Of a stretch of 64,000 bases of DNA, positions 27,928 through 45,472 are shown piece after piece. The position numbers were made by a program, and so were the translations under genes. The stretch lies in assembly GCA_018303925.1 (NCBI GenBank), contig JAGVXF010000007.1, positions 56,775 to 120,774 of the forward strand. Reading direction: 5' to 3'. How positions within the stretch are numbered: the stretch's first letter is position 1; each line of letters starts with the position of its first letter. The notes under the pieces are model-generated. The model did no database searches, had not been told where the DNA came from, and was given only the letters and a program-made list of their open reading frames with translations. Source of the stretch: Candidatus Pacearchaeota archaeon (lineage in GTDB: Archaea; Nanobdellota; Nanobdellia; Pacearchaeales; GW2011-AR1).

Positions 27928-28752
27928 ATGAGAAATGAAATTTTGGTAGTATTTTTGCTTCTAATTTCAGTTGGTTTTATCAGTTTTATTTCAGCTGTTC
28001 CTCCAGAACCAATGGCTTTTTATGGAAATGTGAGTATGAATGGAACTTTAATTCCAAATGGATATTACTTAACTGCAAAAATTAATGAGATAGTCAGTGG
28101 GCAGTGTGAAGTCATTAATGGAATATATGGGATGGGCGAAAACACTTGCATAGTTCAGAGTTATTCCTCAAATAAAGTTAAATTTTATTTAGGGAATAAT
28201 TTTTTGGGAGAATATCCTTTTCAGGGAAAAGAAATTGTAAATTTAAATTTTCAAACAGATTCCCTCCCTTCTAATTTTACTCCTCTTTCAAATGGAGTTT
28301 GTGAACCTTCAAAGGGAGAGTGTTCTTACAATTTGTTGGATTGCGGAAATTCAATAACAACAGTTTGTGTCGGAAATGGAATTTGTGATTCAAATATTGG
28401 AGAGACATGCTCAAATGCCCCTAATGATTGTGGGGCTTGTCAAACAACAACCCCTCCCGGTGGAGGAGGCGGTGGAGGAGGCGGAGGCTCTGGTGGAGGA
28501 GGTTCATCTTCAGGAGTAACAACTCCGGTGGATGTTCAGTTTTTAGGGGATAATTCTCAAAATCCAGGTTCCAGTGAGGGGGAGAATAATAATCAACTTT
28601 CAAACGAAACCTCTCAAAAAGAAAAAATTTTTGGAATTACAGGATTAGCAATTGGTGAATTTGCAGGAACTACCCTAGGAATAATCACAATTATTATTTT
28701 AGTATTGGTCCTTCTTGGAATTCTTTACTATTTTTTCTTTGGAAAAAAATAA
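27928..28752 (+). CDS. Membrane-anchored Cys-rich surface protein with poly-Gly linker
   Basis: Probable start at MRNEILVVFLLL (signal peptide). Cys-rich module CGNGICDSNIGETCSNAPNDCGAC. G10SG4S3 linker. C-terminal TM anchor IITIIILVLVLLGILYYFFF. Confidence 0.6.
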   Translation: MRNEILVVFLLLISVGFISFISAVPPEPMAFYGNVSMNGTLIPNGYYLTAKINEIVSGQCEVINGIYGMGENTCIVQSYSSNKVKFYLGNNFLGEYPFQGKEIVNLNFQTDSLPSNFTPLSNGVCEPSKGECSYNLLDCGNSITTVCVGNGICDSNIGETCSNAPNDCGACQTTTPPGGGGGGGGGGSGGGGSSSGVTTPVDVQFLGDNSQNPGSSEGENNNQLSNETSQKEKIFGITGLAIGEFAGTTLGIITIIILVLVLLGILYYFFFGKK

Positions 28753-28848: not shown

Positions 28849-30141
28849 ATGAAAAATAAGATAATTTTGGCCTTTGGAATTTTAATTTTGGGAGTTCTTT
28901 TAATGGGATTGGGAAGTGCGGCAGATATGTGCCCTTTAAATTTAGGAGATTACGACCAAATTGTGAATATTGGAGGTGGAAAGTTAAGGTCGGATTTAAC
29001 TATTTTAGATGCAAAATCTTCAATGGTTCCACTTGTGCTTAACCCGGGAGATTATTCCATAACTCTTGTTGCGAGAGATGAATCCTTAAACCGAAAAGAT
29101 GATTCTCAGCCAAATGAGCAATATCAGATTTCATTTCTAAAAGAAGGAAGTCAGGTTGCTTTAACTTCTTCAACTTCTGATCTTGAAGATAATGTTCTTT
29201 TTTCAGAAGTGATTGAAGTTGTTGAAACTCGTCTTTCTCTTCCAGAGGGGGTGGATTCTATTCAGGCAATCCATTCAGAGTATAATTCTGTTCCGACTGA
29301 TTCTCCAAATAGTTTGTATGCAGTTTGTGTTGGAATAAATAAAGTTGAGAAATTCTGCGATTATGATGCGGGGGTAAATTATGCCTACAGTTTTTCAAAT
29401 GGAACAGGAATAGCAATTGGACATGAAACGGGTTCAAACTGGATTGAAGGGTACGTGAATTTATCTAAAAATGAAACTTATGACATTAAACTTTCTCTTA
29501 AAAATTTTGGGGCAAGTGCAATAAGCAACCTTTATATCCTTTTTGAAATTGATGGGTCTTATTTAAATTCATTTTATAAGAATTTGGCGGTGAGTTCAAG
29601 TGCTGTTTACCAAAAATTTGAACTAAATGCTTCATCGCTTTCATGCGGAAGCCATATAATTTCTGCTGAACTTTCTAAAGAGGGTCAAATTGATTGTAAT
29701 CTTGAAAACAATTATGCAGAAAGAGAAATTTATGTTCAATGCAATGGAATTGAGCCCCCAAACCCAACTTGCGGAGACAATGTCTGTGGTTTGGAAGAGA
29801 GTTGTTTAACCTGCTTTGAGGATTGCGGATTTTGTGATACAGAAGATGACGATAATGATGGGAATACCAATCATTCGTTTATTTCTTTTTCTTACGGATG
29901 TAGCCCTGAATGGCAATGTTCTTCCTGGGGAGATTGCATTAACAGAATTCAAACAAGAATGTGCAATGACAAAAACAATTGCAATTATACCTACGGAAAA
30001 CCTTTGGAAACTTCAGGGTGTGTTGAAGGAATAACCTCTCTTAATTCGCAGATTCAGGATGGAGGTATAAGTCTATGGATTTTAATAGGAATAATTTTCC
30101 TTGTGATACTTTTGGTAATTTTGATTCTTGTTTTTTTGTGA
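28849..30141 (+). CDS. Surface protein with signal peptide and C-terminal TM anchor, paralogous in part to the 24601 ORF
   Basis: Signal peptide. The domain SQPNEQY...TSDLEDNVLF...SPNSLYAVC is homologous to the 24601 ORF. Cys module CGDNVCGLEESCLTCFEDCGFC. C-terminal TM. Confidence 0.65.
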   Translation: MKNKIILAFGILILGVLLMGLGSAADMCPLNLGDYDQIVNIGGGKLRSDLTILDAKSSMVPLVLNPGDYSITLVARDESLNRKDDSQPNEQYQISFLKEGSQVALTSSTSDLEDNVLFSEVIEVVETRLSLPEGVDSIQAIHSEYNSVPTDSPNSLYAVCVGINKVEKFCDYDAGVNYAYSFSNGTGIAIGHETGSNWIEGYVNLSKNETYDIKLSLKNFGASAISNLYILFEIDGSYLNSFYKNLAVSSSAVYQKFELNASSLSCGSHIISAELSKEGQIDCNLENNYAEREIYVQCNGIEPPNPTCGDNVCGLEESCLTCFEDCGFCDTEDDDNDGNTNHSFISFSYGCSPEWQCSSWGDCINRIQTRMCNDKNNCNYTYGKPLETSGCVEGITSLNSQIQDGGISLWILIGIIFLVILLVILILVFL

Positions 30142-30593: not shown

Positions 30594-31319
30594 GTGAAAA
30601 TGAACAAAAAAGCACAGTTTTATTTTTTGGCAATAATTCTTCTTGCCGCAATTTTTATAGGATTTGTTACAATTTCAAATAAAACAGTTTATACAGGCGC
30701 CCTAAAACTTTCTCATACTGAAGCGAGCATAAATTCAGAGATTTCAAGCCTTCTTGATTATTTTTCAAGAGAGCAAATTTCTGATTCAACCCAAAAAACA
30801 ATTCTGACTGATTTCTCTGTTTCTTATATAAATGAGATTGGAATAGATAAGGATGTTTTTTTTATTTTTGGAAAATTCCCCACGGTGACCTTATCCGGGA
30901 ACAGAGTTACCGGAACAAATCTGTCAGTTAACACAGGAAGCGGGGATATCTATGTTAATAATGTGGGAATTTTTCAAACAGATTATACTCTTTCAGGGAC
31001 TAACGTTACTAAAGTGAGTCTTGACGGAGTTGAGTACAATTTTACTTTTTACTCGGGACAAAATGTTTATTACCTTCTAAAAGCAGTTTCAAATAACCAA
31101 ACTTTTATATCCAGCGGAGGAACACTTTCAAGCCAGTTGATTGATTACTGCAACGACGGGGTTTTTGACAATGGAGAGGAAGGGCTTGACTGCGGAGGAA
31201 GCTGTCCAAATGAATGTGAGTACGATACATGTAATCAGAATAGCCTTCAGGACAATGGAGAAACAGGAGTGGATTGCGGAGGAGGAATCTGTCCCCCATG
31301 CGATTTTGTAGGAGTCTGA
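30594..31319 (+). CDS. Pilin-like (class III signal peptide candidate) Cys-rich surface protein
   Basis: N-terminus MKMNKKAQFYFLAIILLAAIFIGFV: a basic stretch followed by a hydrophobic helix, as in archaeal type IV prepilins (possible KKA/Q cleavage). The C-terminus has two NG-EEG-DCGG-C modules. Confidence 0.5.
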   Translation: MKMNKKAQFYFLAIILLAAIFIGFVTISNKTVYTGALKLSHTEASINSEISSLLDYFSREQISDSTQKTILTDFSVSYINEIGIDKDVFFIFGKFPTVTLSGNRVTGTNLSVNTGSGDIYVNNVGIFQTDYTLSGTNVTKVSLDGVEYNFTFYSGQNVYYLLKAVSNNQTFISSGGTLSSQLIDYCNDGVFDNGEEGLDCGGSCPNECEYDTCNQNSLQDNGETGVDCGGGICPPCDFVGV

Positions 31320-31824: not shown

Positions 31825-32607
31825 ATGATAAATGAAATAATCAGACCAATTGTCAAAGTGGGAAACAGTTCAGGGGTGGTTTTGCCTAAGAACTGGTACG
31901 GGGGAAAAGCAAAGATTGAACTTGTTGAGAAACCGCTCAATATAAAAAAAGATCTTCTTGAAATTTTAGAAGGATATCTTGCAAAAGTTTTGGGAGTTTA
32001 TCTTTCCGGAAGTTATGCGAGAGGGGAGGAAAAAGAAAGTTCGGATGTGGATGTGTTAGTTATAACTTCAGATTTAAATAAAGTGATAAAAAAAGGAAAA
32101 TATTATATAATTTTAATTTCAAAAAAGATTTTAGAAAACACCCTTAAAAAAAACGTTTTGCCTCTTCTCCCCATGGTTAAAGAAGCAAAAACTATTTTGA
32201 ATGAAAGCCTGATTCGAGAATATAAAGGAACCCTTTTAACAAAAAGGAATTTGAAGTTCCATCTTGAAACCACAAAGTCTGCTCTTGAAATTAACAAGTC
32301 TTTAGTTTTACTGGATAAAGAAAAGAACTTGAATTCTTCGGATGGGGTTTCTTATTCTCTTGTTCTTAGATTAAGAGGAGTTTACATTGTTGATTGCCTG
32401 ATTAAAAATAAGATGTGGTCAACAAAAGAATTAAAGAATCTTATAAAAAAAGTATCTGGTTCTTCAGAAGCATATTCCGGGTACCTGCGTGTTAAAAATG
32501 ATGAGAAGAATCAGGAGAACCTGAAAACTGAAGAAGCCGAAAAAATCATAAATTATGTTTCCAAGAAAATCAATGAACAGGAAAAATGGCTAAGAAAAAT
32601 AAAATAG
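31825..32607 (+). CDS. MazE/AbrB-like swapped-hairpin domain fused to a minimal nucleotidyltransferase (MntA-like), paralog 1
   Basis: N-terminal VKVGNSSGVVLPKNW (MazE/SpoVT-AbrB-like). NTase motif GSYARGEEKESSDVDVLV (GS...D.D). C-terminal helical domain. About 35-40% identical to the 34880 ORF. Confidence 0.6.
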   Translation: MINEIIRPIVKVGNSSGVVLPKNWYGGKAKIELVEKPLNIKKDLLEILEGYLAKVLGVYLSGSYARGEEKESSDVDVLVITSDLNKVIKKGKYYIILISKKILENTLKKNVLPLLPMVKEAKTILNESLIREYKGTLLTKRNLKFHLETTKSALEINKSLVLLDKEKNLNSSDGVSYSLVLRLRGVYIVDCLIKNKMWSTKELKNLIKKVSGSSEAYSGYLRVKNDEKNQENLKTEEAEKIINYVSKKINEQEKWLRKIK

Positions 32608-33215: not shown

Positions 33216-34622
33216 ATGGAAAACTTCAGGCATGAAATAAAAAAAGAAGATGAAATGAATGTTTCGGGAGTAATTTATGCATCTGAAAAAATTTACGAGG
33301 CAATTAAGAAAGACAAAACTATTGAGCAGGTTAAAAATGTCGCAAAACTTCCGGGAATTGTCCGTGAGTCAATTGCACTCCCTGACTGCCATCAAGGTTA
33401 TGGTTTTTGCATCGGGGGGGTTGCTGCTTTTGACTTGAAGAAAGGGGTGATTTGCCCTGGGGGCATAGGGTATGATATAAATTGCTCGGTAAGATTACTC
33501 AAAACGAACCTTAAAAAAGAGGATATTTTAAAAAAACAAAAAGAGGTTCTTGAAACCCTTTACAAGAAAATTCCGTCAGGGGTTGGTCACGGGAGTCCTT
33601 TTCAGATTAGTTACAAAGAACTGGATAAACTTTTAGATAGGGGAGCAAAATATATGATTGAAAAAGGTTACGGAATTCCCGAAGATTATTTATACAGTGA
33701 GGAAGAAGGATGCATGAAAAATGCTGATTCCCAAAAAATTTCAAAAAGAGCAAAGCAAAGAGGGATTGGGCAAATAGGGACGATTGGCGCCGGAAATCAT
33801 TTTTTAGAAGTCCAAAGTGTTGAAGAAATTTATGACAAAAAAACCGCCGAAGTTTACGGACTCTCTAAAGGGCAGATTGTAGTGATGATTCATTGCGGTT
33901 CAAGGGGGCTTGGTCATCAGGTTGCGTCGGATTATATTAAGTTAATGGAAGATAAATATGGAATAAAAAATCTGCCTGACAGGGAATTAATAAACGCACC
34001 GATAAATTCTGAATTAGGAAAAGATTATTTTTCAGCAATGGGTGCTGCTGCAAATTTTGCTTTTGCTAATAAACAGCTTATTACATATTGGGTTCGTGAG
34101 GCTTTAACAAATTTATTTTACGAAAAGAAAGTAAAGGTTGAAGTTCTTTATGATGTTTGCCACAACATAGCAAAGATTGAAGAGTATTTTGTGGGGGGTA
34201 GAAAAGTGAAAGTTTGTGTCCATAGGAAGGGCGCAACAAGGGCATTCGGAAAAGGAAGAATTGAAATTCCTGAAAAATACAGGAGCGTTGGGCAACCCGT
34301 TTTAATTCCGGGCTCAATGGGAACAGCATCCTATGTAATGGTTGGGCGCAAGAAATCAGAAGAATTAACCTTTGGTTCATCTGTTCACGGCGCCGGAAGA
34401 CTCATGAGTAGAAGTCACGCAGTAAAAAACCTTAACGGAGAAAAAATAAAAAAGGACCTGAAAAAGATAGGTGTTGAAGTTGGCGTCGGGAGTCTCAGAG
34501 GGTTAACAGAGGAAGCTCCAGAAGTTTACAAAGATATAGACGAAGTTGTAAGAGTTGTTGATTCACTTGGAATTAGTCAAAAGGTTGCAAGAATGAAACC
34601 TTTGATTGTTATTAAGGGATAA
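33216..34622 (+). CDS. rtcB: RNA-splicing ligase RtcB
   Basis: Full RtcB motif set in order: PDCHQGYG, GYDINCSVR, GNHFLEVQ, CGSRGLGHQVA, CHNIA, HRKGATRA, GSMGTASY and VHGAGR. Confidence 0.95.
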   Translation: MENFRHEIKKEDEMNVSGVIYASEKIYEAIKKDKTIEQVKNVAKLPGIVRESIALPDCHQGYGFCIGGVAAFDLKKGVICPGGIGYDINCSVRLLKTNLKKEDILKKQKEVLETLYKKIPSGVGHGSPFQISYKELDKLLDRGAKYMIEKGYGIPEDYLYSEEEGCMKNADSQKISKRAKQRGIGQIGTIGAGNHFLEVQSVEEIYDKKTAEVYGLSKGQIVVMIHCGSRGLGHQVASDYIKLMEDKYGIKNLPDRELINAPINSELGKDYFSAMGAAANFAFANKQLITYWVREALTNLFYEKKVKVEVLYDVCHNIAKIEEYFVGGRKVKVCVHRKGATRAFGKGRIEIPEKYRSVGQPVLIPGSMGTASYVMVGRKKSEELTFGSSVHGAGRLMSRSHAVKNLNGEKIKKDLKKIGVEVGVGSLRGLTEEAPEVYKDIDEVVRVVDSLGISQKVARMKPLIVIKG

Positions 34623-34679: not shown

Positions 34680-34880
34680 ATGGGCAAAGACATCAAACAT
34701 ATGAAGAAACTGCGCAAAAAAAGATTAAAATCGTTTAGAAAGCAAGTGGAAAAACACGAGGAAAAAATTGAAAATGAGAAGGGAAGGTTTGATACAACCA
34801 AAGATTACTGGGAAAAAGAAATAGATGAAAAATTTTTAAAAAAGATCGAAGAAGATGAAAATTATCTGGAGGAAAAATAA
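34680..34880 (+). CDS. Small basic protein (66 aa), paralog of the 32586 ORF
   Basis: Shares the conserved KSFRK.VEKHEEKIEN..G.....YWEKEI core with the 32586..32765 ORF. Its stop codon overlaps the ATG of the downstream NTase gene. Confidence 0.4.
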   Translation: MGKDIKHMKKLRKKRLKSFRKQVEKHEEKIENEKGRFDTTKDYWEKEIDEKFLKKIEEDENYLEEK

Positions 34881-35653
34881 TGGAAATACAAATTAAAAAG
34901 GCTGTCAAATCGGGGAATTCTTCAGCTGTAATTCTTCCAAAATCATGGTTGAATAAAGAAGTCCGAGTTGAACTTGTTGAAAAGTCCCCCGAAAAAATTC
35001 TTTCCGAAGTTCTGAATATTGTTGGAAATTATCTTGATTTAAAAAAGATAATAGGAGTTTATCTTGTGGGAAGTTATGCCCGTGGAGAAGAAGATGAGGG
35101 AAGTGACATTGATATTCTGGTTCTAACTGATGATTTAGACAGAAAGATGATTTCCAAAGGAGAGTATAATGTTTTAATCTTGTCTTCAAATCTATTAAAA
35201 CAAAAATTAGATAGGGATCTTCTCCCTATTGGGCCAATGATTCGAGAAGCGAAGCCTCTTTTGAATCTTAGCTATCTTGATTTAATAAAAGTAGAGGTTA
35301 CAAAAAAGAATGTTTCTTGGTACCTTCAAACTACAAAAGACAAATTAAGAATCATAAAAAGTATCCTTTCCAGAACAAAACTTAAATTTCTCGATAGTAG
35401 AATTGCTTATACTTTGGTTTTGAGAATAAGGACTCTTTATTTAATTAATAAGATGATAAAAAATGAAAAACCGTCAAAAAAGGAACTTATAGAAATAATA
35501 AAAAGCACTTCCGGAGGAGAAAATGCTTACAGAGGATATTTGGATGTAAAAAATAATTCAAAGAAAAAAAGAGAAATCAGCTCAGATGAAGCTCGGGGGC
35601 TGTATGATTATTTGAAGAATCTTTTATCTGATATTAAGATGCAATTAAACTGA
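34880..35653 (+). CDS. MazE/AbrB-like domain fused to a minimal nucleotidyltransferase (MntA-like), paralog 2
   Basis: N-terminal VKSGNSSAVILPKSW. NTase motif GSYARGEEDEGSDIDILV. Same architecture as the 31825 ORF. Confidence 0.6.
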   Translation: MEIQIKKAVKSGNSSAVILPKSWLNKEVRVELVEKSPEKILSEVLNIVGNYLDLKKIIGVYLVGSYARGEEDEGSDIDILVLTDDLDRKMISKGEYNVLILSSNLLKQKLDRDLLPIGPMIREAKPLLNLSYLDLIKVEVTKKNVSWYLQTTKDKLRIIKSILSRTKLKFLDSRIAYTLVLRIRTLYLINKMIKNEKPSKKELIEIIKSTSGGENAYRGYLDVKNNSKKKREISSDEARGLYDYLKNLLSDIKMQLN

Positions 35654-35937
35654 TTTTATATGGGCACAAATTTTATAAATATGAAATAATCGGAGGATCT
35701 GCAAAGAATATTTCTGAAAATCTAAAGAAAAAATATTACAAAATTGAATGGAGAGAAATTGTGAGGGCAAGAGATTTAATTGTCCATAGTTCTTTTAAAA
35801 TTGATTCCGATGCAATTTTTGGGATTATGGAAAAAGATTTTCCGATTTTAAAAGATCAAATTGATGAAATTTTGGAGAGCGGATGTGAATTCAAAAAAAC
35901 AAAAATATTTATAAAACACTTTAACCTAATTTTTAAA
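35638..35937 (+). pseudogene. HEPN (HepT/DUF86-type) C-terminal remnant without a start codon
   Basis: The open frame reads ...KYEIIGGSAKNISENLKKKYYKIEWREIVRARDLIVHSSFKIDSDAIFGIMEKDFPILKDQI..., which matches the HepT C-terminal half (IIGEA.KNLSE..K..YP.I.W..I.G.RN.LVH.Y..ID...VW). The roughly 40 aa of N-terminal HepT sequence is missing, and there is no ATG, GTG or TTG at a sensible position. It overlaps the NTase stop and ends at the start of the giant gene. Confidence 0.45.
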
Positions 35938-38900
35938 TGATAAAAGAGGGAAAGGTAATCTTTAGTTTATTATTTTTGCTAATCTTTGTTGTTGTGATTT
36001 TTTCAAGTTCATTTGTTTTAGGAGAATTAACATGTGCTGGGGGGACATTGACGGGAACTTACGCAGGATGTGATGGAGATTATGAGAATACCCAAACAGG
36101 AAGTTGCTGGTATAGACCCCCAATTTACTACCCCAATGGAACTGCGATGTACAATTTCAAGAGTTTGGGTCTTCGGGCAGAAGTTTATTGTTGGAATTTT
36201 GAAACTCCCGCTTTGTGTGGTTCCAATGACGAATATTGTAAATGGTATCATGGGCAAAATTCTTGTTATGGTCTGAGTCAGGAAAATTGCGGGTCAATAT
36301 ATTATCCTACTTGTTCTCCCCAATATTCAGATTATACCTGCTCTTGTCCTTTAGGGCAGCACAGTGATTTGGCAAGTACCCCTTTTGCATCATGCAGTGG
36401 AACTTTTGTGGAAAATTATACATCTAGTTATTGTTATTGGAGGGAGGGTGTAAAGGCTAATGCCATAAGTCAAGGTGAGTATTGCAGTTATTCTGATGCC
36501 GGTTCTTGCAGAGGTGCCGATGAATTCTGTGAATGGAATATCTTATCTTACTCAGCTACTTTTTCATGTATTGGATTTAATGAGCAAACATGTATGTTTA
36601 CTTCAGGATGCGTAGCGTCTTATGATACCAATTATCAATGTGTTTCAAATACATGCTCAGATACCGATGGGGGTTATGTTCCCGAAATACAAGGAACAGT
36701 TAGCGCTCAAAGTGGGGATACTGGGACAGATTTTTGTGAGGATGGTTATTTTTTAACTGAGTATTATTGTTCGAATAGTGTCGGATTCTCAGGACAGGAA
36801 ACCTGTAACTTTGGTTGTTTAAATGGAGAGTGCAAGCCTGTTCCTTGCCCAAGTTCTCAAGAAGGGGTAAATGGAGGAAACCTTGGATGTATTGATAAAA
36901 TAATTTCTAATTCTCATATTATTTATTCAACTTCTTCATGTACTAGTTTAAGTCAAATTTGTTCTGCATGTAATTCGGGTTATTATCCTTCTTATGATTA
37001 CGCTACAGAATCTTATATTTGTCACGCTATCCCTGATACTTGCTCTGACAGCGACGGGATGAATTATAATACCCGAGGGACCGTGAATGCAAGTAGGGGA
37101 TATTCAGGAACTGATTATTGCGCTGATTCCGGGGGAGACCCAGGGGCTCCAACTTCAGAAGGGGATATTTTATGGGAGTTTGGATGTTCAGGAACGACCG
37201 GAGTTAAAAATATTTATGGGGATTGCCAGTATGGATGTTCAGAGGGAAAGTGTAATCCTACTCCTCCCCTCCCAGATTGTCCTGTTACCCAAACTGGAAC
37301 TATATATGTAGGATGTGTACAGGATCAAGATATAAATTCAAATCTAATTAACTATGCCCATTCAACAAATGATTTATGTAGTGATGAATATGTGTGTTTT
37401 CAATGTAATTCAGGATACATCTGGGACGGAAATAATTGTGTTCTTAAATGTCCAAGTCCACAACCAGGAACGAGCGGGGGAAATTTGGGATGTTTAGAAA
37501 ATCAGGTTTTATATTCTTACGTTTTGTATCCCACCTCTTCATGTACTAGTTTAAGTCAAATTTGTTCTGCATGTAATTCTGGTTATTATCCTTCTTATGA
37601 TCACGCTACAGAGTCTTATATTTGTGTTCCTGTGTCTATTTCATGTACGGATACAGATTTAGGTCAAGCTTATCCTGAATATTTCAAAGGGTCTCTAACT
37701 GCAACGACGGGGATAACAAATGGTATGGATAATTGTGCAGATTCAACACATTTAAATGAATATTTTTGTGATGCATCAAACCGAGGTTCACTTGATTCCA
37801 ATCATCTTTGCCCAAAAAACTATGGTTGTAATAGTGGCGCATGCAGAGACTTTTATTTTGTTGGCACATCAGATGGTAATAAAATTTTATCTTTAGGTCA
37901 GGGAACAACTCTTCCTAAGACGATTAAATTTGTTGGTTCAGCTTATTCAGGGTCAGGAGGAGGGTCTTTTTCACTTTATGAAAGGGCTTGGACAAATGAA
38001 TTCTGGGGATGGTGTGATATTTGTGCAGCAGATACTCTTGTTGGGACTTATTCAGGAAATACTCAGGATTTTAACGGCGATGGGGTTAATGATTATTTAA
38101 GTGACAGTTGGACTTTAAATTCAAATGTTTTAAATTCTTTAGAATCTGATGGGCCGTATGACAAGTATGAATTTTATTTTAAAGTTGGTTCTTATCAAAG
38201 TTCTGGTTTGTTGGTTGATCCAAGTCTTGACACCTGCCACGACGAAATTCAAAATGGTGGCGAAGAAGGTATTGATTGTGGTCCTGTGTGTGGAAATGAA
38301 TGTCTTTTTTGTCAGGACAGCGATGGAGGGCAAATTTATGATGTTCAAGGAAGGATAATTGCAAACAATGGGTTACATACAAGCGGGACAGATTTTTGTG
38401 ATGATTCAACTCATTTAAATGAATATTATTGTAGTGCTGCTAATGCAGGTTCTTTAGAGATACGCCACTATTGTGGGGCTGGAAATGCATGTTCAAATGG
38501 AGTTTGCACAGGAGAGCAAATTCCTAATTCAATTGTTTATTGGGCTTATAAAACCTATCAGGAGGCACCCGGATATTTAGAGGTATTAAACTCAAGTATT
38601 GGTTCTTTTGGAAGAAGATTAGTTTTAACTTATCCAGAACCTTCTCTTAGTTCATTTCAGATATTTAAAGAAAGCAATGCAATTTTTATTCCCGATACAT
38701 TGGTAAGAGAAGAGTATGGTTCATCATTTTCTAATTTTTATTTTTATGATTGGATTCCTTCTTATGCGGATTTTATGAATGCAGGAACTCCGACTTTTAG
38801 CAATAATACATATAGATTTTACTTTAAGGTGGACGATGGAGATAGTCGTTTAACAAGCAATTATTGGGATGTTTATGTAATTGGAGAGGTTCCTTCATGT

Positions 38901-39545
38901 ACTGATGGAGCGCAGAATGGGGATGAGGAAGGAGTTGACTGTGGAGGAAGCTGTCCAAACGAATGTGAACCAGATATAGATCAGTGCCTTGGAATAGATT
39001 TTTGTATGGATTATACCAGCGAGGCGACATGTAATTTAGATAATTGTAGTGTTGCACAATATAGTGGTTATGCTCCTTCCGGTACAACTCCTTTGTGTAT
39101 TTGGTATTCGGTAGTTCCCGAGGAATGTATCTTTGGCTATTCAGGAAGTAATTATGGGGTTTGTATGCACCACGATAGCCCGACAAATGACAGTTGTGAG
39201 GATGACGGTTTTTTAACTCATATATGGACTAATGAATATTCCTGGGATTTAGATAATGCTTTTTCAACCCAGCAGGCATGTGAGGTTTATACATCTGAGT
39301 GTTCAGGCAATTGTGTCTTAAGGGGAAGTTCATGGCATTGTGATCCCAATGGAGAAGAAACAACGTGCTTAAATGGAGAAACTACTGCAACAATTCCATG
39401 CCCTGCTCAAATACAACTTGGATTTTTTGATTGGCAGAATGTGGTAGTTGCTATTCTTGTAATTTTCCTTTTGTATTTAATTCTTTTGAAGAATAAGAAG
39501 ACACAAACAGAAAAATCCTCGAAAGGCAAAAAGAGAAAAAAATAG
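35937..39545 (+). CDS. Giant secreted Cys-rich modular surface protein (1202 aa) with C-terminal TM anchor and basic tail
   Basis: Signal peptide. Four copies of an approximately 60-aa module C.D[ST]DG..GT....G.D.C.D...L.EY[YF]C...C..GC..G[AK]C. Two NG-EEG-DCGG-C-NEC modules. An approximately 200-aa tandem duplication. C-terminal TM AILVIFLLYLILL followed by KKTQTEKSSKGKKRKK. Confidence 0.7.
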   Translation: MIKEGKVIFSLLFLLIFVVVIFSSSFVLGELTCAGGTLTGTYAGCDGDYENTQTGSCWYRPPIYYPNGTAMYNFKSLGLRAEVYCWNFETPALCGSNDEYCKWYHGQNSCYGLSQENCGSIYYPTCSPQYSDYTCSCPLGQHSDLASTPFASCSGTFVENYTSSYCYWREGVKANAISQGEYCSYSDAGSCRGADEFCEWNILSYSATFSCIGFNEQTCMFTSGCVASYDTNYQCVSNTCSDTDGGYVPEIQGTVSAQSGDTGTDFCEDGYFLTEYYCSNSVGFSGQETCNFGCLNGECKPVPCPSSQEGVNGGNLGCIDKIISNSHIIYSTSSCTSLSQICSACNSGYYPSYDYATESYICHAIPDTCSDSDGMNYNTRGTVNASRGYSGTDYCADSGGDPGAPTSEGDILWEFGCSGTTGVKNIYGDCQYGCSEGKCNPTPPLPDCPVTQTGTIYVGCVQDQDINSNLINYAHSTNDLCSDEYVCFQCNSGYIWDGNNCVLKCPSPQPGTSGGNLGCLENQVLYSYVLYPTSSCTSLSQICSACNSGYYPSYDHATESYICVPVSISCTDTDLGQAYPEYFKGSLTATTGITNGMDNCADSTHLNEYFCDASNRGSLDSNHLCPKNYGCNSGACRDFYFVGTSDGNKILSLGQGTTLPKTIKFVGSAYSGSGGGSFSLYERAWTNEFWGWCDICAADTLVGTYSGNTQDFNGDGVNDYLSDSWTLNSNVLNSLESDGPYDKYEFYFKVGSYQSSGLLVDPSLDTCHDEIQNGGEEGIDCGPVCGNECLFCQDSDGGQIYDVQGRIIANNGLHTSGTDFCDDSTHLNEYYCSAANAGSLEIRHYCGAGNACSNGVCTGEQIPNSIVYWAYKTYQEAPGYLEVLNSSIGSFGRRLVLTYPEPSLSSFQIFKESNAIFIPDTLVREEYGSSFSNFYFYDWIPSYADFMNAGTPTFSNNTYRFYFKVDDGDSRLTSNYWDVYVIGEVPSCTDGAQNGDEEGVDCGGSCPNECEPDIDQCLGIDFCMDYTSEATCNLDNCSVAQYSGYAPSGTTPLCIWYSVVPEECIFGYSGSNYGVCMHHDSPTNDSCEDDGFLTHIWTNEYSWDLDNAFSTQQACEVYTSECSGNCVLRGSSWHCDPNGEETTCLNGETTATIPCPAQIQLGFFDWQNVVVAILVIFLLYLILLKNKKTQTEKSSKGKKRKK
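36933..37023 (+). repeat. Internal direct repeat copy A (about 91 nt) within the giant gene
   Basis: tcttcatgtactagtttaagtcaaatttgttctgcatgtaattcgggttattatccttcttatgattacgctacagaatcttatatttgt is repeated 603 nt downstream with 3 mismatches. Confidence 0.85.
37536..37626 (+). repeat. Internal direct repeat copy B (about 91 nt) within the giant gene
   Basis: Near-identical to 36933..37023 (g/t, t/c and a/g differences). It encodes SSCTSLSQICSACNSGYYPSYD(Y/H)ATESYIC in both copies. Confidence 0.85.
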
Positions 39546-39548
39546 ACG

Positions 39549-39995
39549 TTAATTATTATTTATAAATTTTATAATTTCTTCCTTGAATTTTTCAAAATCC
39601 TGCAACTTTTCTGACAAGATTTCATATATGATTTCGTTGTCGGTTTCCCCATATTTATGAACGAGAATATTTCTAAATCCTTTCATTCCCATCAATATTT
39701 CTTTTAATTCTTTTGAAATTACTCCTTTCTTGTAAGTTTTTTCTATTAGATCCTCTTCTCCCGAGGGGAGTCCCAATTTAAGCCCGGAAGTGATTATGTT
39801 TAGGATGTCAATAATTGTTTCTATAGATATTTGCAATAATCTTTCGCATGCCCTTTTATCTTTTATGGAATTTTTGTAAATTTCTAAATTTTCAGGAATT
39901 ATCTCTTCAAGTTCGGAAAGATATTTATTCAATTCATCTATCTTTGATAAAATCCTTTTATTATCTAATTTTGACATTTTCGAGGTAACTATCAT
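39549..39995 (-). CDS. HEPN-domain toxin-like protein (HepT/DUF86 family)
   Basis: C-terminal GFRNILVHKYGETDNEIIYEIL carries the R-x4-6-H HEPN motif (RNILVH). It lies downstream of, and overlaps, the MNT gene. Confidence 0.75.
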   Translation of the reverse strand: MIVTSKMSKLDNKRILSKIDELNKYLSELEEIIPENLEIYKNSIKDKRACERLLQISIETIIDILNIITSGLKLGLPSGEEDLIEKTYKKGVISKELKEILMGMKGFRNILVHKYGETDNEIIYEILSEKLQDFEKFKEEIIKFINNN

Positions 39996-40341
39996 AAATT
40001 TTTTTGTAGAATCCGAATTCTTTTATTGTTTCAAAAGCAATCTCGTACATTTTATCCTCATCTTTTATTAAAATAAATTTTCCTTCTTTTAATATTCTTA
40101 TCTTAATATAAACGGGCAATTGCTCAAATATATGAATATCTAATTTTGAATCGAATTTTGAAGCATATTTTAATTTTATTTTTGACATTTCTTTATTGCT
40201 TTTCTTTTCTTTTAAAACCAGCGCAATGTCAATATCCCGGTAATCTTCTTTTCTTGCATATGATCCAAACAAAGCAACAGCTAAAACTTCTTTGTCTTTT
40301 TCTGCTTCTTTAATAATCTTGGAGGTAATTTCTTTCATCAA
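39961..40341 (-). CDS. Minimal nucleotidyltransferase (MntA-like antitoxin)
   Basis: LFGSYARKEDYRDIDIAL (GS...D.D). 126 aa. Overlaps the downstream HEPN gene by 35 nt. Confidence 0.8.
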   Translation of the reverse strand: MMKEITSKIIKEAEKDKEVLAVALFGSYARKEDYRDIDIALVLKEKKSNKEMSKIKLKYASKFDSKLDIHIFEQLPVYIKIRILKEGKFILIKDEDKMYEIAFETIKEFGFYKKIYDSYLENVKIR

Positions 40342-40498
40342 ATTAGGAATTATTATTTGTTTAAATAATATTCTTTTTTGTTTTTAATAAAATTTTTGGC
40401 CGAACTGTAAATCCATAAATTTTATATCCTCACTTGTATTTGAAAAATATATAAATGGGAAAGTTTATAAATAACTTCTAAGTAGTAATATCAGGAAG

Positions 40499-41992
40499 AT
40501 GGGAAGGAAATTAAGGAATTTGGTAGCAGCCGTTGGGATTACTTTAGCGACGCTTTCTCCAATGAAATATGCAAATGCACAGGTTGACAGCTTAAATACC
40601 CCTCTTTCTTTAGAGAGAGCCGGAAATTTTTTCTCTCCATCAGGGGTTAATGAACTTGTTGGAAAACCATGGAAATATGGGGATGGAGATGTCAATCATG
40701 ATGGAAGAACGGATAGTTTTGATTTAGCAGTTATAGATTCAGTTTCAAATGATGAAGGGGATATAGATGGGGACAGCCTTTCTTCATCTGCAAATGACAA
40801 GCAAATATTGTCTGATTATTTGAATGGAAATATCCCTTATTTACCGGGGGACTGGGCAAATTTAAACAAGGAAGAAAAAACTTCGTGGATTAAAAAGATG
40901 ATAAAAATTCAAAATTCTCTTCCTAATACAGATTATAGTCAATGGGTTTGCAGAAATTTTATAACCCAAATGGAACTTGAATTTTACGGTTCTTCAAATA
41001 TCGATGGATTTATACAATATTATCATGATAATGGAGAACCACAGGGGGGGGAATATTATTTGGGAGAAAAAAATGCAAGGTTTGGTTTGCCTGTTGTTTA
41101 TGCTGGCACAATAAACACCTCAGGGGAATCTCATTCTGTTAATGGGGTTCTTGTTGGTAAAGACCCTTTGAATTTTAATGATTGGTATTTTTTTGGATAC
41201 GAAAATGATAATCAGGTTGTTCCTGGCTCCCAGCAAATGGATTCAAATAGCCCCGTTTCAATTGGATTGAATGGATATTTTAAAGGACCTTTTGGACCTG
41301 TTTTTAGTCCTCTTTCCGATTTGATACAATTTGAATTGCAGGGCGGAGAAGTTGTAAATATAATTCATAAAAATTATGTCACACTTCACAATCCCGAGAA
41401 AATAAAAGTTCATCTTGGAAAACTTGAAAAAATAGTAATTGATAATAATTCTTTTCCAGATGTGACAAATTTTACCCCCGAATTTTTGGAGAGTCAGGGA
41501 TATAAAGCAATACCGGATACTTCTTCGGAGAATGCTTTTGGAATTCCGGTTAAATTGACTCATGAAGATTCAGATACTACAAATGTTTCATACAGACATT
41601 TTCAGTTTTTAAGAAAGTTTGTTGGTTCAGTTTATTCAGGGGGAATAACAAAGTCAGATTCTTCCCCACAAATAATTGAGGTTAATAATTTTACACCCGT
41701 TGAACCAGAGGATTTTTATTTGCCGGATGAATTCAAGATTTACCAGAATTATCCTAATCCATTCAACCCAACGACAAATGTGAAGTATGAGACAAACAGA
41801 TATGGAGATGTAAAATTGGAAGTTTACAATAATTTGGGGCAGAAAGTTTATGAAAAAACAGATAAAGGAGTTTATCCCGGGGTTCATGAATTTAAGGATA
41901 TAGATATGTCAAAATATGCTTCGGGAATGTATCTTTTTAGAATTTATGAGGGGGAGAAATTCAAATCTATAAAAGGTGTTTTACAAAAATAA
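40499..41992 (+). CDS. Secreted protein with N-terminal dockerin-like repeats and C-terminal T9SS (Por_Secre_tail)-like sorting domain
   Basis: Signal peptide ending ANAQ. Dockerin type-I-like pair GDVNHDGRTDSFDLAVIDSV and DIDGDSLSSSANDKQILSDYLNG. C-terminal KIYQNYPNPFNPTTNVKYE...VYNNLGQKVYE...GVHEF...ASGMYLFRI...KGVLQK matches the bacterial T9SS C-terminal domain consensus. Confidence 0.6.
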   Translation: MGRKLRNLVAAVGITLATLSPMKYANAQVDSLNTPLSLERAGNFFSPSGVNELVGKPWKYGDGDVNHDGRTDSFDLAVIDSVSNDEGDIDGDSLSSSANDKQILSDYLNGNIPYLPGDWANLNKEEKTSWIKKMIKIQNSLPNTDYSQWVCRNFITQMELEFYGSSNIDGFIQYYHDNGEPQGGEYYLGEKNARFGLPVVYAGTINTSGESHSVNGVLVGKDPLNFNDWYFFGYENDNQVVPGSQQMDSNSPVSIGLNGYFKGPFGPVFSPLSDLIQFELQGGEVVNIIHKNYVTLHNPEKIKVHLGKLEKIVIDNNSFPDVTNFTPEFLESQGYKAIPDTSSENAFGIPVKLTHEDSDTTNVSYRHFQFLRKFVGSVYSGGITKSDSSPQIIEVNNFTPVEPEDFYLPDEFKIYQNYPNPFNPTTNVKYETNRYGDVKLEVYNNLGQKVYEKTDKGVYPGVHEFKDIDMSKYASGMYLFRIYEGEKFKSIKGVLQK

Positions 41993-42160: not shown

Positions 42161-44809
42161 ATGAAAGAAAAAAGGGGAGGTAGTTATTTTTTAGCTGTAA
42201 TTCTATTTATCTTTTTAATTTCATATGTATCCGCATCTTATGAGTTTTCAAATCATTCAATTGAAACTCATTATTCAAAAGGCTCAACCATCTCAGGAAA
42301 TATTAATATTTCTTTTGAGAACGAATCTTTGAATTCTTTTTTTGAAGATTCATTTGATAACAAGGTTTACCTTAAAGATTTACTCGGAGGTTCGAATTCA
42401 TATTTATACAACTGTACTTCCAAGAAATGTTCTTCATCATATGTTCTTTCAAACCCATCAAGTTCCAAAACTTTTTCTCTTCCAAAAGGTGAAGAAAAGA
42501 CCTTTGGATTTGTGATTCAGGGAAATATTCAGAACATAAATTCGGTTTCTTTTTTGCTTTCAAGCACTGCTCCCGCGTCAGATTTAAATCAGATAAAAAT
42601 CGATATTTTAGATGATGGAATTATTGATGCAGGAAACTCCAAAGCCGGAACTGCTTCGCAGAATGTGAATTATGGTTGTTATAATGCAAGCGAGGGGCCA
42701 AACGAGATAAACCTTATAACTACTCCTTTTTGCCAGAATATAACTGTATATGAATCTCCGGGTCTGCTTCTTGGAGGATTTTTTAAAAAAGTCTCAGACG
42801 GGTCAAATGGAATTGGATTGAATATTTACAATAAAAAAGGAGTTTCTCTTGGATCATGCAGAATTTTAAATTCAAGTGTCTCTTTTTCAGGAGGGAACTA
42901 TTTTTGCAGTGTGAATGTCTCTATACCTGAAACTAATAATTATTATATCTGTGCTTATGCAGAACAGGGAGAGGCCAAATACAAAACTCTTGGATATTCT
43001 TCTTTGTCATCAGGAAAAAATTGCGGTTTTTTAGGTTATTTAAGTTTTCCCCCCCAAAATGAAACTGCGGCATACAAGATAGGTCTGACCCCCTTAAAAT
43101 TTTCTTCTCCAAGTGCTCTTAATATCTCAAATGTCCTTCCAACTGGAGATTTAATCTCTTTACTCATCGGAGAATATCTCTCCAAAACTTATCCTGAAGG
43201 CTGCCTTGAGGGATGCAAGATCCCTTTAAAATTAGTTTCTTTTGAAGACCAGTCAATCACTTTAAACAGCCTGAAAGTCAGTTATGATGCAGAATCGCTT
43301 CCAGGTCTGGAGATTTCAACTTTTTATGATTTTGACATTCAAGACTCAAAAGTCAGTTCTCCAATGCAGTTACTTCCTCTTGACGGATTTTTTTATGTTT
43401 CTCAGTTAGGGTGGGATGAAAATTACACCCTCAAATTTAAAGGAGAAAAACTTTTTAGTGAAAAGATTTTCCTTGAAAACTTCTCCATTCAGATTTATCC
43501 CTTAAGATATGCTGTTAATTTTTCTGTTCCTTTTTTAATATTAAATTCTCAGGATGCGGGTTCACAGTATTATGAAATTGATTTTGGAGACAATTCCATT
43601 TCCACAACTTCGTCAAAATCTTTTTTGCACAAATATATTTCAGTTGGGAATTTTAGTTTAAAGGTTTCGTCTTATATAAACGGCACCAAATTAACAAAAA
43701 CCTTCAAAATAGAAATTCTTCCTTCAAAAAACTTTATTGACAATGAAATTAAAATCCAGAGGAGTTCCATTTCTTTTTTTAACTCACAGATATCTTTTAT
43801 GAATTCTTTTGAAAAGTCAGAAATAAACAGAATTTTTGAACTTGAGAACCTGACTACCACACTTAATTCAATTGAATCTTCTGTTTCTTTGGCGTCTTCG
43901 GATTCGGATTATGAGAAAATTTTCGGGAATTTAATCAGGCTTAATATTCCAAAGTCAATTACTCGCACAGTCTCCCAGGAAATCCCTTTTATTATTGAGG
44001 TAAATGAAATAAATCTGGATATCCTTAAGGATATAACCGAAGAAGACTATTCCCCTGCCGATGAAAGTGCTGATTATATTTCTTTTTGGGATTATGAAAA
44101 TCTTAATTCAAAAATCTCCTCTAACAATATTTTAGTTGAGACAGCAGACGGTTCAAAAGTTCCTCTTAATTTTTATGAGATTTCTATCTCTCCTAAAAAA
44201 AATATTAACCAGTCTTATTATTTTATTTTTCCAAATTCGGGGAATGCCAATTTTGAAGAAAATTCCGGAGTTGAGGCCGGGAGCGGGTATTCCTATTTTG
44301 AACTTGGAAACATTGAAAAAACTATAAGGTTTTCAACCGGGGAAGATTTTGGGTCGTATCATCCTTTTTTTATTGCCCCACAGAATGTTGAAGTTTTCGC
44401 AGGAGGGGACATTTCCGAACCCATGAATAATAACTGGATATTGATTTTAGTAATTCTGGGGGTTATTCTAATAGGGTTTTTAACTTATTACATTATGCAC
44501 AGGTGGTATGCTGTTAAGTATGAAAATTATCTTTTCCCTGATAAAAACCACCTTTACAATGCAATTTTTTATATAAATAATTCATTAAAGAATGGAATGG
44601 AAGAGAGTGAAATAAGAAAGAGTCTGCTTGATGCTGGATGGAAAAATGAGCAGGTTGTTTACTTAATAAAAAAGCATTCAGGAAAGAATCCGGGGATGTT
44701 TAATCTGTTTGGTTCTTCAAGTGAAAAGGGATCCTCAAAAATAAATTCACCTCCAAAACCTGGAAGAAATGTGAATTATAAGGATTCAAATACAAAATTT
44801 AATAAATAA
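42161..44809 (+). CDS. Type-I membrane surface glycoprotein with PKD-like domain and cytoplasmic tail (882 aa)
   Basis: Signal peptide. Dense N-x-S/T sequons. PKD-like YYEIDFGDNSIS...HKYISVGNFSLKVS. TM WILILVILGVILIGFLTYYI followed by an approximately 110-aa cytoplasmic segment. Confidence 0.6.
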   Translation: MKEKRGGSYFLAVILFIFLISYVSASYEFSNHSIETHYSKGSTISGNINISFENESLNSFFEDSFDNKVYLKDLLGGSNSYLYNCTSKKCSSSYVLSNPSSSKTFSLPKGEEKTFGFVIQGNIQNINSVSFLLSSTAPASDLNQIKIDILDDGIIDAGNSKAGTASQNVNYGCYNASEGPNEINLITTPFCQNITVYESPGLLLGGFFKKVSDGSNGIGLNIYNKKGVSLGSCRILNSSVSFSGGNYFCSVNVSIPETNNYYICAYAEQGEAKYKTLGYSSLSSGKNCGFLGYLSFPPQNETAAYKIGLTPLKFSSPSALNISNVLPTGDLISLLIGEYLSKTYPEGCLEGCKIPLKLVSFEDQSITLNSLKVSYDAESLPGLEISTFYDFDIQDSKVSSPMQLLPLDGFFYVSQLGWDENYTLKFKGEKLFSEKIFLENFSIQIYPLRYAVNFSVPFLILNSQDAGSQYYEIDFGDNSISTTSSKSFLHKYISVGNFSLKVSSYINGTKLTKTFKIEILPSKNFIDNEIKIQRSSISFFNSQISFMNSFEKSEINRIFELENLTTTLNSIESSVSLASSDSDYEKIFGNLIRLNIPKSITRTVSQEIPFIIEVNEINLDILKDITEEDYSPADESADYISFWDYENLNSKISSNNILVETADGSKVPLNFYEISISPKKNINQSYYFIFPNSGNANFEENSGVEAGSGYSYFELGNIEKTIRFSTGEDFGSYHPFFIAPQNVEVFAGGDISEPMNNNWILILVILGVILIGFLTYYIMHRWYAVKYENYLFPDKNHLYNAIFYINNSLKNGMEESEIRKSLLDAGWKNEQVVYLIKKHSGKNPGMFNLFGSSSEKGSSKINSPPKPGRNVNYKDSNTKFNK

Positions 44810-44827: not shown

Positions 44828-45472
44828 ATGGCAATAAAAATAATGGCAAATTTTTTCAAAAAAATCTTTTCAGGCCTATTCAAAAATAAGAAAGATATAA
44901 AACTGGGTTTTTACGGTCCGCCTAATGCAGGGAAAACAAGCCTTGCAAATAGAATATGCAAAGATTTTACAGGAGAGGAGATAGGCTCTGTTTCAAAAAT
45001 TCCCCATGAGACAAGAAATGTGCAGTTTAAAGAAAAAGTTGAAATCTCTTATAAGGGAAAATCAATGATTTTTAAGATGATTGACACTCCCGGGATAGCA
45101 ACACGCATTGATTACGAGGATTTCTTAAAATATAAAGTAAACAAAAAAGATGCAAAAATAAGGGCAAAAGAGGCCACTCAGGGAATTATTGAGAGCATAA
45201 AATGGCTTGATGACATGGATGTTGTTGTTATTGTCCTTGATGCAACTGAAAACCCTTACAATCAGGTTAATATAACCATAATAGGAAATCTTGTTGCAAG
45301 AAAAATTCCGGTTTTAATTGTTGCAAATAAATCCGACTTAAGAAAGGCGAACATAAAAAAGATTGAAGAGGCTTTTCCGGAATACAGGGTCGTTGGAATG
45401 AGCGCTAAGTACGGAAAGAATTTTGAAGAGTTTTATGAGGAAATTTTTAGCCTTTCAAAAAAATTAAAGTAA
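44828..45472 (+). CDS. Small Ras-superfamily GTPase (hydrophobic residue in place of the catalytic Gln)
   Basis: G1 GPPNAGKTS, G3 DTPGIA (no Gln after DxxG) and G4 NKSD. 214 aa. Confidence 0.8.
   Translation: MAIKIMANFFKKIFSGLFKNKKDIKLGFYGPPNAGKTSLANRICKDFTGEEIGSVSKIPHETRNVQFKEKVEISYKGKSMIFKMIDTPGIATRIDYEDFLKYKVNKKDAKIRAKEATQGIIESIKWLDDMDVVVIVLDATENPYNQVNITIIGNLVARKIPVLIVANKSDLRKANIKKIEEAFPEYRVVGMSAKYGKNFEEFYEEIFSLSKKLK

Follow-up and report, generated by a model that had tools for sequence, protein, structure and literature searches.

A predicted secreted transglutaminase-like protein with a dockerin-type module and a type IX secretion C-terminal domain in a Pacearchaeota surface cassette

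The stretch of DNA analysed here (hereafter, the window) comprises 64,000 nt of contig JAGVXF010000007.1 from the Candidatus Pacearchaeota archaeon assembly GCA_018303925.1, and the gene in question, at 40499-41992, encodes a modular protein consisting, in order, of a signal peptide, a conserved N-segment, a dockerin-like module, a predicted transglutaminase-like domain, an immunoglobulin (Ig)-like beta domain and a type A C-terminal domain (CTD) of the type IX secretion system (T9SS; Table 1). This layout is based on an alignment of 26 relatives and an AlphaFold2 (AF2) model of the full-length protein (predicted local distance difference test, pLDDT, 83.9). A search of 5.8 billion proteins returned about 30 full-length relatives and thousands of matches to the CTD only, with P0003 (locus L022) and P0014 (L004) as the closest non-identical relatives of the window protein. 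An earlier note on this DNA, made from the letters, had described two dockerin-like segments near the N-terminus and a T9SS-type sorting domain at the C-terminus; both of the quoted N-terminal segments and the C-terminal strings are present in the translation.

The CTD lies at the extreme C-terminus (aa 411-497 of 497) of a protein whose N-terminus was judged by inspection to be a Sec signal peptide, and it exceeds the cut-offs of both Pfam Por_Secre_tail (PF18962; 36.4 bits against 27, aa 418-488) and NCBIfam TIGR04183 (33 bits against 23, aa 418-492). Against a hidden Markov model (HMM) of 89 unrelated bacterial CTDs, the window CTD scores 94-100 bits, level with genuine Ignavibacteria cargo. 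Residues 411-495 of the AF2 model form a beta-sandwich of seven strands (pLDDT about 80-90), and a Foldseek search with model residues 411-497 retrieved the CTD of NucA in the T9SS translocon (8glk_D, E 7.6e-4, TM-target 0.66) and also 8gl8_D, while the family profile matches 8glk_D and 8glj_D by sequence. On this profile and modelled-fold evidence the domain is firmly assigned as a genuine T9SS type A CTD and a true member of TIGR04183/PF18962, and the HMM search that the earlier note had suggested bears out its identification. All 26 of the close family members match Por_Secre_tail. The archaeal CTDs have lost none of the motifs shared by the family, such as the invariant QNYPNP.N block and the terminal Lys, and their scores of 88-95 bits on the general bacterial CTD HMM do not differ significantly from those of the bacterial members (Mann-Whitney p = 1.0). 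A decaying relic was considered and rejected on these HMM scores.

To our knowledge, archaea do not have a T9SS, and none of its components (SprA/Sov, PorV, PorU, PorZ, GldK/L/M/N) was found among the window open reading frames (ORFs) of at least 150 aa or in the flanks of the archaeal loci. When about 120 kb of archaeal DNA (the window, L002, L005, L006 and L010) was scanned with the HMM of 89 bacterial CTDs, the target alone among the ORFs carried a CTD; one 20-kb Ignavibacteriales locus contains four. An archaeon has no lipopolysaccharide (LPS). The T9SS has been described as confined to Bacteroidetes and depends for its function on an outer-membrane translocon, on PorU as sortase and on anionic LPS, with the CTD engaged from the periplasmic side and removed by PorU before the cargo is linked to anionic LPS (PMC5445135). 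A single-membrane archaeon would be expected to possess neither translocon nor PorU nor anionic LPS, T9SS genes are presumably absent genome-wide, and the target should not be classifiable as functional T9SS cargo in its archaeal host. It resembles T9SS type A cargo, such as Flavobacterium johnsoniae NucA (8glk chain D) and the Porphyromonas gingivalis gingipains, in combining a Sec signal peptide with a C-terminal beta-sandwich CTD of ~80 aa and in having such cargo, in Ignavibacteria, as its closest bacterial relatives; it differs in its Pacearchaeota host, in the lack of any T9SS gene in the window, in being the sole CTD gene of the archaeal DNA surveyed and in departing from the CTDs of bacterial family members at ten fixed positions (see below).

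The core of the family is the predicted enzyme domain of ~180 aa in the middle of the protein, which the earlier note had overlooked. Within this alpha/beta domain (aa 121-300), Cys151 (28/30 sequences) and His212 (27/30) are nearly invariant, 27/30 sequences have D/N/E at position 228 and 28/30 have D/N at position 222; the Cys and His remain at least 90% conserved across 80 distant members. As sequence conservation, this amounts to a Cys-His-Asp/Asn set of candidate catalytic residues. There is no Pfam or NCBIfam match for aa 121-400, even at E 10, the enzyme-domain profile found nothing relevant in the PDB, and no Pfam family is recorded for the homologs besides CTD, dockerin or Ig-like. 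The domain appears, from its modelled fold and candidate catalytic residues, to resemble transglutaminase-like proteases while lying outside the described sequence families. LapG/BTLCP (PDB 4fgo) is only 8% identical to the target, with no sequence-level match in Pfam, NCBIfam or PDB, and differs further in that the predicted calcium binding of the target would reside in a separate dockerin-type module; the activity and substrate of the target are predictions.

An exhaustive profile search of 1.84 billion representatives returned 512 clusters at E <= 1e-3, 340 of them at <= 1e-10. A T9SS CTD is present in 67 of the 80 distant members and a Pfam-significant dockerin in 30 of the 80, which, together with the conserved Cys and His, makes dockerin, enzyme and CTD the standard architecture of a rare family. 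This family of candidate thiol-enzyme domains was previously unannotated, and its members are in the main cargo of the T9SS in Ignavibacteria and other bacteria of Bacteroidota type.

The dockerin-type module is firm for the family and weak, or degenerate, in the window copy. At the family level, the profile matches solved type I dockerins in the PDB (E 6e-6), and Pfam Dockerin_1 is matched by 11/26 close relatives (E <= 0.01, best E 1.6e-10) and by 30/80 distant members (E <= 0.001, best E 6.6e-13), so that the dockerin named in the earlier note stands for the family; the window copy itself is below the gathering score of Dockerin_1 (PF00404; 12 bits against a cut-off of 22.9, E 0.25), with aa 63-86, loop 1 only, aligned. 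Loop 1 is canonical (D64-x-N66-x-D68-G-x-x-D72-x-x-D75), and loop 2, starting from D88 (D-I-D-G-D-S...), has a Ser in place of Gly in the window copy and exceeds the canonical 12-residue loop by one residue, a length shared by most of the family. D64 and N66 are invariant in the 26-sequence alignment (28/30 and 29/30 in the wider set), and D68, D72 and D75 are conserved wherever the module is present. The AF2 model has one helix after each loop (73-81 and 98-108), giving the two tandem loop-helix units of a dockerin, with predicted binding of calcium.

The cohesin-bearing partner that had been proposed among the giant neighbours was not detected, either by Pfam in the three giant ORFs and the other window ORFs or by profile and sequence searches of the two conserved giant neighbours against solved structures in the PDB. 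Dockerins as such are not exceptional in archaea: Archaeoglobus is an example of archaea with non-cellulosomal dockerin-bearing proteins, and dockerins and cohesins of anaerobic methanotrophic (ANME) archaea are reportedly the topic of a published paper. Like such proteins, the target is secreted, has a tandem DxNxDG calcium-loop/helix module and has no link to cellulose degradation; unlike them, its module belongs to a constant dockerin-enzyme-CTD arrangement, either shared with bacteria or acquired from them, and no cohesin was found nearby.

The signal peptide comprises a basic n-region (R3/K4/R6), a hydrophobic core (LVAAVGITLATL) and A-N-A before Q28, an N-terminus ending in 'NAQ' that is kept across the family alignment. 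Cleavage between A-N-A and Q28 is predicted from this n/h/c organisation by inspection, and residues 1-29 are of low pLDDT in the model. In the N-segment that follows (pLDDT 85-91), N43 and W58 are nearly invariant in the alignment. The Ig-like domain is duplicated or expanded in long-form relatives, as seen from insertions in their alignment, and its HMM segment matches twice in L002, L007 and L001. The translation contains no membrane anchor of the protein's own.

The host is a DPANN archaeon, as follows from the archaeal gene set of the window and from its RtcB, which is 100% identical to an NCBI protein of a Candidatus Pacearchaeota archaeon, with the next matches labelled Nanoarchaeota/Pacearchaeota. 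The window encodes TYW3, FtsZ, an RPA-like OB protein, MCM, TBP, an ATP-dependent DNA ligase, RtcB, an archaeal CCA-adding enzyme, TrmB, a signal-peptide peptidase, FttA/aCPSF1, a proteasome subunit, Rad50/Mre11 and RNase J. The same gene order occurs in at least seven independent assemblies from four sources (NCBI, ENA, JGI and Logan), and near-identical copies of the target (99%, 91%) are present on other contigs; this repeated synteny excludes a chimeric contig. The archaeal flanks (MCM, TBP, RtcB and others on the same contig) and the uninterrupted contig of the earlier note are thereby upheld. Its remark that the codon composition looks native is true, with a GC content of 0.32 against 0.34 and a uniform 0.30-0.39 along the window, but uninformative, because the Ignavibacteria loci have an equally low GC (0.29-0.31). 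Tetranucleotide composition likewise does not separate archaeal from Ignavibacteria DNA, both being of low GC, and so assigns neither L004, L008 and L020 nor nativeness.

Table 1 Features of the target gene and its immediate neighbours in the window
Feature	Residues	Coordinates	Strand	Remarks
Whole gene	497 aa	40499..41992	+	ATG start; secreted modular protein; full-length homologs exist
Sec-type signal peptide	1-27	40499..40579	+	translation inspected
Conserved N-segment	28-59	40580..40675	+	family consensus LNGPTPLEVIGNxFSQPNV...W
Dockerin-type double Ca-binding F-hand module	60-120	40676..40858	+	
Transglutaminase-like (papain-fold) thiol-enzyme domain (predicted)	121-300	40859..41398	+	candidate catalytic Cys151, His212, Asp228
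Ig-like beta-sandwich	301-405	41399..41713	+	all-beta in AF2 model
T9SS type A CTD, archaeal variant type	411-497	41729..41989	+	profile and fold matches
A/T-rich upstream region		40342..40498	+	TATA-like TTTATAAATA at 40464-40473, ~30 nt 5' of the ATG; putative promoter from sequence reading
HepT-like/MNT nucleotidyltransferase toxin-antitoxin pair		39549..40341	-	between upstream giant and target; insertion in the cassette
Upstream neighbour	1202 aa	35937..39545	+	Cys-rich giant surface protein; signal peptide, C-terminal transmembrane helix
Downstream neighbour	882 aa	42161..44809	+	surface protein; signal peptide, PKD aa 442-515, C-terminal transmembrane helix, conserved cytoplasmic tail

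The neighbourhood conserved in archaea runs from Archease and RtcB through a Cys-rich giant, the target and a PKD protein of ~880-1015 aa to a 214-aa GTPase, OapB/OapC and the CCA-adding enzyme. The Cys-rich giant of the window has no Pfam or PDB match, and its homologs lie upstream of the target in the archaeal loci L002, L003, L005, L006, L017, L018 and L020, with a fragment in L008/L009. The PKD domain of the downstream giant, the sole domain found in it by the PDB search, matches those of collagenases (E 2e-6), and orthologs of this giant (35-50% identity) lie 3' of the target in L002, L003, L005, L006, L010 and L017, again with a fragment in L008/L009. No homolog of either giant was present in any of the bacterial loci examined. 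The conservation of both giants beside the target in archaea makes a functional link plausible. Across related Pacearchaeota, identity is 41-49% for the target and 35-50% for the downstream giant, against 65-80% for RtcB and 85-92% for the GTPase (housekeeping, 65-92%), and this difference marks a fast-evolving surface cassette, consistent with diversifying selection on, or frequent allele replacement of, surface proteins. The regions compared were 35937-39545 and 42161-44809 (surface) and 33216-34622 and 44828-45472 (housekeeping).

A HepT-like/MNT pair also lies directly upstream of the L020 ortholog (69-73% identity, annotated HepT-like and NTP_transf_2/Polbeta). Elsewhere, the toxin-antitoxin genes beside the gene are VapB/ParE (L017:10338-10812), HicAB in the bacterial L019 (L019:2649-3103) and ParE and PemK (L020:1497-3296); there is an integrase near P0014 (L004), and a transposase and restriction-modification genes near P0021 (L018). 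The target locus behaves like a variable, mobile-element-prone spot.

Beyond the Pacearchaeota, members of the family occur in bacterial gene contexts: beside RecA/RecX on a 4.5-Mb Ignavibacteriae contig (P0020), near LigA, sigma-70, RodZ and Pol III delta (P0019), near bL21/bL27 and an OmpR-type two-component system (P0011), and adjoining thrC and a BNR-like protein (P0012). The archaeal members are P0005 (L005/L006), a GTDB archaeon (L010), P0013 (L002), P0017 (L017), P0009 (L020) and probably P0021 (L018). Among the GTDB species representatives, the gene was present in one archaeon, in four Ignavibacteriales/Melioribacteraceae and as two distant copies in Planctomycetales, seven loci that are a lower bound given a scan with a 6-sequence middle-domain alignment and a pattern matching that limits sensitivity.

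Bootstrapped neighbour-joining trees were built from simple distances, with fragments left out, and the domain of each tip was labelled from gene context (P0003 and P0014 carry no domain label). In the tree of the protein body, from which the CTD was omitted, archaeal P0005 and L010 share a 100% clade with bacterial P0011 and P0012, archaeal P0021 pairs with bacterial P0019 (100%) and archaeal P0017 falls within the Ignavibacteriales (62-77%). At least 2-3 inter-domain transfers are needed to account for this interleaving, in a family that these archaea share with T9SS-bearing Ignavibacteria, and the lateral transfer envisaged in the earlier note is thereby substantiated. A phylogeny of the CTD segment, which it had also suggested, gave a different picture, with the eight bacterial CTDs in one 100% clade and five of the six archaeal lineages outside it. 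For archaeal P0005 and bacterial P0011, identity is 83-85% over the N-segment, dockerin and Ig-like domains and 41% over the CTD, while the window protein and P0005 share 42% in the enzyme domain, 62% in the dockerin, 61% in the Ig-like domain and 65% in the CTD. Ten CTD columns (433, 436, 441, 462, 465, 470, 473, 484, 487 and 496) fully separate five archaeal from eight bacterial lineages, the archaeal differences including Gly436, Met470, Tyr/Phe473 for Leu and the loss of an aromatic residue at 487, and the five archaeal lineages that share these columns belong to different body clades. From the fixed columns and the discordance between body and CTD trees it follows that, in the sequences compared, the CTD type tracks the host domain and not the phylogeny of the body. 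The simplest reading would be that constraint maintains one archaeal lineage of CTDs and that a gene passing between archaea and bacteria has its CTD replaced.

In a separate observation on the bacterial CTDs, those of P0011, P0012, P0025 and the L015 and L016 homologs contain an in-frame insertion (such as ..GAEHVQPL.. or ..PSQEGTFKTSPLERG..GGGCVQCL..) after the PNPFNP motif and before the strand that follows; the insertion resembles a translated repetitive element and lowers their CTD HMM scores to 57-75 bits.

One copy of the gene, P0007, lies on a 14.3-kb JGI contig (L008) within an array of clustered regularly interspaced short palindromic repeats (CRISPR; L008:1039-5738). The contig consists of 17 perfect 46-nt repeats (29-30-nt spacers), a stretch of 3,158 bp, three perfect repeats, cas2, DUF559, cas1 and cas9, and the insert contains a C-terminal fragment of the Cys-rich giant, the complete P0007 and the N-terminal 315 aa of the downstream giant. 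Its nucleotide identity to the archaeal loci is 68-69% over 2.3 kb, and P0007 retains an archaeal-type CTD. Between a point within one repeat and the far end of the repeat that follows, an independent Logan contig (L009, 1-3234) matches L008 at 100% identity, which confirms both junctions of the insert in a second assembly. The L008 Cas9 is closest to those of Melioribacter (67%), Ignavibacterium (61%) and Melioribacteraceae (57%), and Cas1 is of the type II NMENI form, affinities that make L008 an Ignavibacteria contig with archaeal-type DNA at a spacer position. On the cassette fragments P0007 and L008 had been taken as archaeal, an assignment dropped after the CRISPR repeats and the Ignavibacteria-type Cas9 were seen. 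Degenerate repeats mark the far end of the array, and the insert is third from the cas-proximal end, presumably the leader end.

On opposite sides of the insert, the spacers at L008:2000-2029 and L008:5583-5612 are identical at 27/30 positions, and those at 2228-2256 and 5659-5688 have a common 12-nt core (TCACTAACCA..), which hints that the segments on the two sides come from distinct, though related, arrays and suggests recombination between them. The insert could have arisen by aberrant adaptation, by recombination between arrays or through a mobile element that carried repeats. The ordinary spacers of L008 had no significant match to the sequences compared, archaeal loci included. Archaeal DNA enters these Ignavibacteria, with the cassette fragment as physical evidence of its mobility, and this insert is a more surprising side observation than the occurrence of the CTD.

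The reading we favour, with moderate confidence, is that the target is a Sec-exported surface enzyme whose CTD has been kept as a folded domain in a role unrelated to the T9SS. The protein would be exported by Sec and its signal peptide released, export ending there; the CTD, unable to act as an outer-membrane translocation signal, would persist as a folded terminal beta-sandwich under archaeon-specific constraint. The result would be a calcium-binding thiol enzyme at the archaeal surface, with protease, isopeptidase or transamidase chemistry, which would probably be retained there by non-covalent contacts of the dockerin and/or the CTD with the co-conserved giant membrane proteins, and which would process or cross-link surface proteins, either its adhesin-like neighbours or the envelope of a partner, by analogy with the calcium-dependent LapG that cleaves the adhesin LapA. 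In a Pacearchaeota lineage the gene has a fixed cassette position, flanked by two giant type I membrane surface proteins, and it has crossed to and from Ignavibacteria several times. The role of a beta-sandwich spacer, offered in the earlier note, fits these data, and the fixed archaeal substitutions suggest something more specific than a passive spacer. Several points weigh against the favoured reading. The absence of T9SS genes is established for the 64-kb window and not for the whole genome, archaeal P0013 carries a bacterial-type CTD, the neighbour-joining trees use simple distances, few tips and context-based labels, and the Fisher test (p = 0.003) ignores phylogenetic non-independence. 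Further, neither a cohesin nor another dockerin receptor is found in the neighbours, so that retention through them is conjecture, and the bacterial homologs have no giant neighbours, so that the giants need not be the substrate.

A sorting role for the CTD in the archaeon, by which some undescribed machinery (PorU-like, or akin to archaeosortase and PGF-CTERM) would recognise the domain, cleave it off and fix the enzyme to the envelope or S-layer, is unlikely in our view. It would account for the retained family motifs and the bacterial-level scores of the archaeal CTDs, for ten positions held in common by lineages whose bodies have different bacterial sisters, and for a CTD identity between the window protein and P0005 that is on par with the dockerin and Ig-like domains and far above the enzyme domain. 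The fixed differences could equally stem from one inherited archaeal CTD lineage held by purely structural constraint, however, a dedicated system for the single substrate in about 120 kb is unparsimonious, and neither the window nor the conserved cassette holds a PorU-like or sortase-like gene. Like PGF-CTERM, the CTD could act at the C-terminus of a Sec-exported protein to determine what becomes of it at the surface, but known archaeal C-terminal sorting signals carry a transmembrane helix, whereas the target CTD is a folded Ig-like domain, not tripartite and with neither such a helix nor a basic tail, and there is no archaeosortase in the window. A classic cohesin-dockerin pairing, in which the dockerin binds a cohesin-like module hidden in a giant neighbour (the idea of the earlier note) and the CTD is irrelevant baggage, is improbable to a similar degree: the dockerin is significant at the family level, and the giants are membrane-anchored and conserved beside an anchorless target in the archaeal loci, but searches of the giants gave no cohesin by Pfam and, in the PDB, only PKD downstream and nothing in the Cys-rich giant, the second calcium loop of the window copy is degenerate, bacterial members keep the dockerin without giant neighbours, and baggage leaves an intact CTD unexplained.

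We hold it to be quite improbable that the protein serves an archaeon-bacterium interface, with these Pacearchaeota living in close contact with Ignavibacteria or attached to them, the CTD and/or dockerin engaging the bacterial envelope (for example, PorV or cohesin-like proteins) and the enzyme remodelling the partner's surface. In its favour, the close relatives are found only in Pacearchaeota-like archaea and Ignavibacteriales/Melioribacteraceae (Planctomycetales being distant), the two groups have exchanged the gene repeatedly, a 3.2-kb piece of the archaeal cassette occupies a spacer position in an Ignavibacteria type II CRISPR array, and the surface cassette (35-50%) evolves faster than housekeeping genes (65-92%), as do interaction proteins. 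Physical association rests on no direct evidence, however; an external ligand role would be new for a CTD that the T9SS engages from the periplasmic side (PMC5445135), the ordinary spacers matched none of the archaeal DNA compared, and shared sediments with natural DNA uptake would also explain the gene flow. The fuller version strikes us as a long shot: Pacearchaeota and Ignavibacteria would be physical partners, a DPANN archaeon being associated with a bacterium and not with another archaeon, the dockerin-enzyme-CTD protein would be an interface factor with its CTD retuned for a role outside T9SS export, gene flow would be two-way with a CTD swap at every change of domain, and the 3.2-kb 'giant spacer' would be an archaeon-to-bacterium transfer; if this were true, whole foreign genes could be taken in by the machinery of CRISPR adaptation or recombination. 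An artefact, with a bacterial fragment mis-assembled or mis-binned into an archaeal contig, has next to no probability: the domains are typically bacterial and NCBI labels the homolog P0010 (2.9-kb contig) 'Bacteroidetes bacterium', but the gene is mid-contig among archaeal genes, GC is uniform, and the near-identical copies and the synteny over at least seven assemblies refute it.

Several further features of the window lie outside the cassette. MCM (10757-12785, minus strand) is divided between two ORFs, 11403-12785 and 10757-11641, that overlap and lie in different frames, with the frame switch near 11455-11460, in a locally GC-rich stretch with two C5 runs, and with ~17 profile positions missing (the SVLAAANP/sensor-1 region); the candidate explanations are a frameshift with a small deletion, an assembly error or a pseudogene. 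A 98-nt tRNA at 5523-5620 (minus strand; Rfam, 56.8 bits), missed by ARAGORN, probably carries an intron, as is common in archaea, and lies directly upstream of a tRNA 2-thiouridylase-type gene (MnmA-like, 4355-5479). Upstream of the cassette, a run of ORFs with no Pfam match (24601-27774, plus strand, 1057 aa; 27865-28752; 28849-30141; 30594-31319) may belong to a more extensive block of surface or secreted proteins that lack annotation. A 262-aa protein with staphylococcal-nuclease and lamin-tail domains (22243-23031, plus strand) may be secreted, which would fit the nucleotide-scavenging lifestyle of DPANN archaea. Two paralogous Pol-beta-type nucleotidyltransferase ORFs flank RtcB (31825-32607 and 34880-35653, plus strand; 260 and 257 aa).

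The bare occurrence of a T9SS CTD in archaea is not new, since the NCBI pipeline names archaeal P0013 'T9SS type A sorting domain-containing' and one archaeal peptidase of MBG-D (Marine Benthic Group D) is listed as T9SS type A sorting domain-containing in one paper's table; no study analysing T9SS CTDs in DPANN archaea was found in the literature. What is new is the unannotated family of candidate thiol-enzyme domains with its usual dockerin-enzyme-CTD arrangement, the fixed place of the gene in a fast-evolving Pacearchaeota surface cassette, its repeated exchange with Ignavibacteria and a CTD type that follows the host domain. From the last of these comes the prediction that, in T9SS export assays, archaeal-type CTDs would fail and swapped CTDs would succeed. 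What a T9SS CTD does beyond targeting can be studied, as a natural experiment, in a host that has no outer membrane. The DPANN Pacearchaeota are tiny archaea of symbiotic type, and if the link to Ignavibacteria were one of physical association, it would bear on the question of who their partners are.

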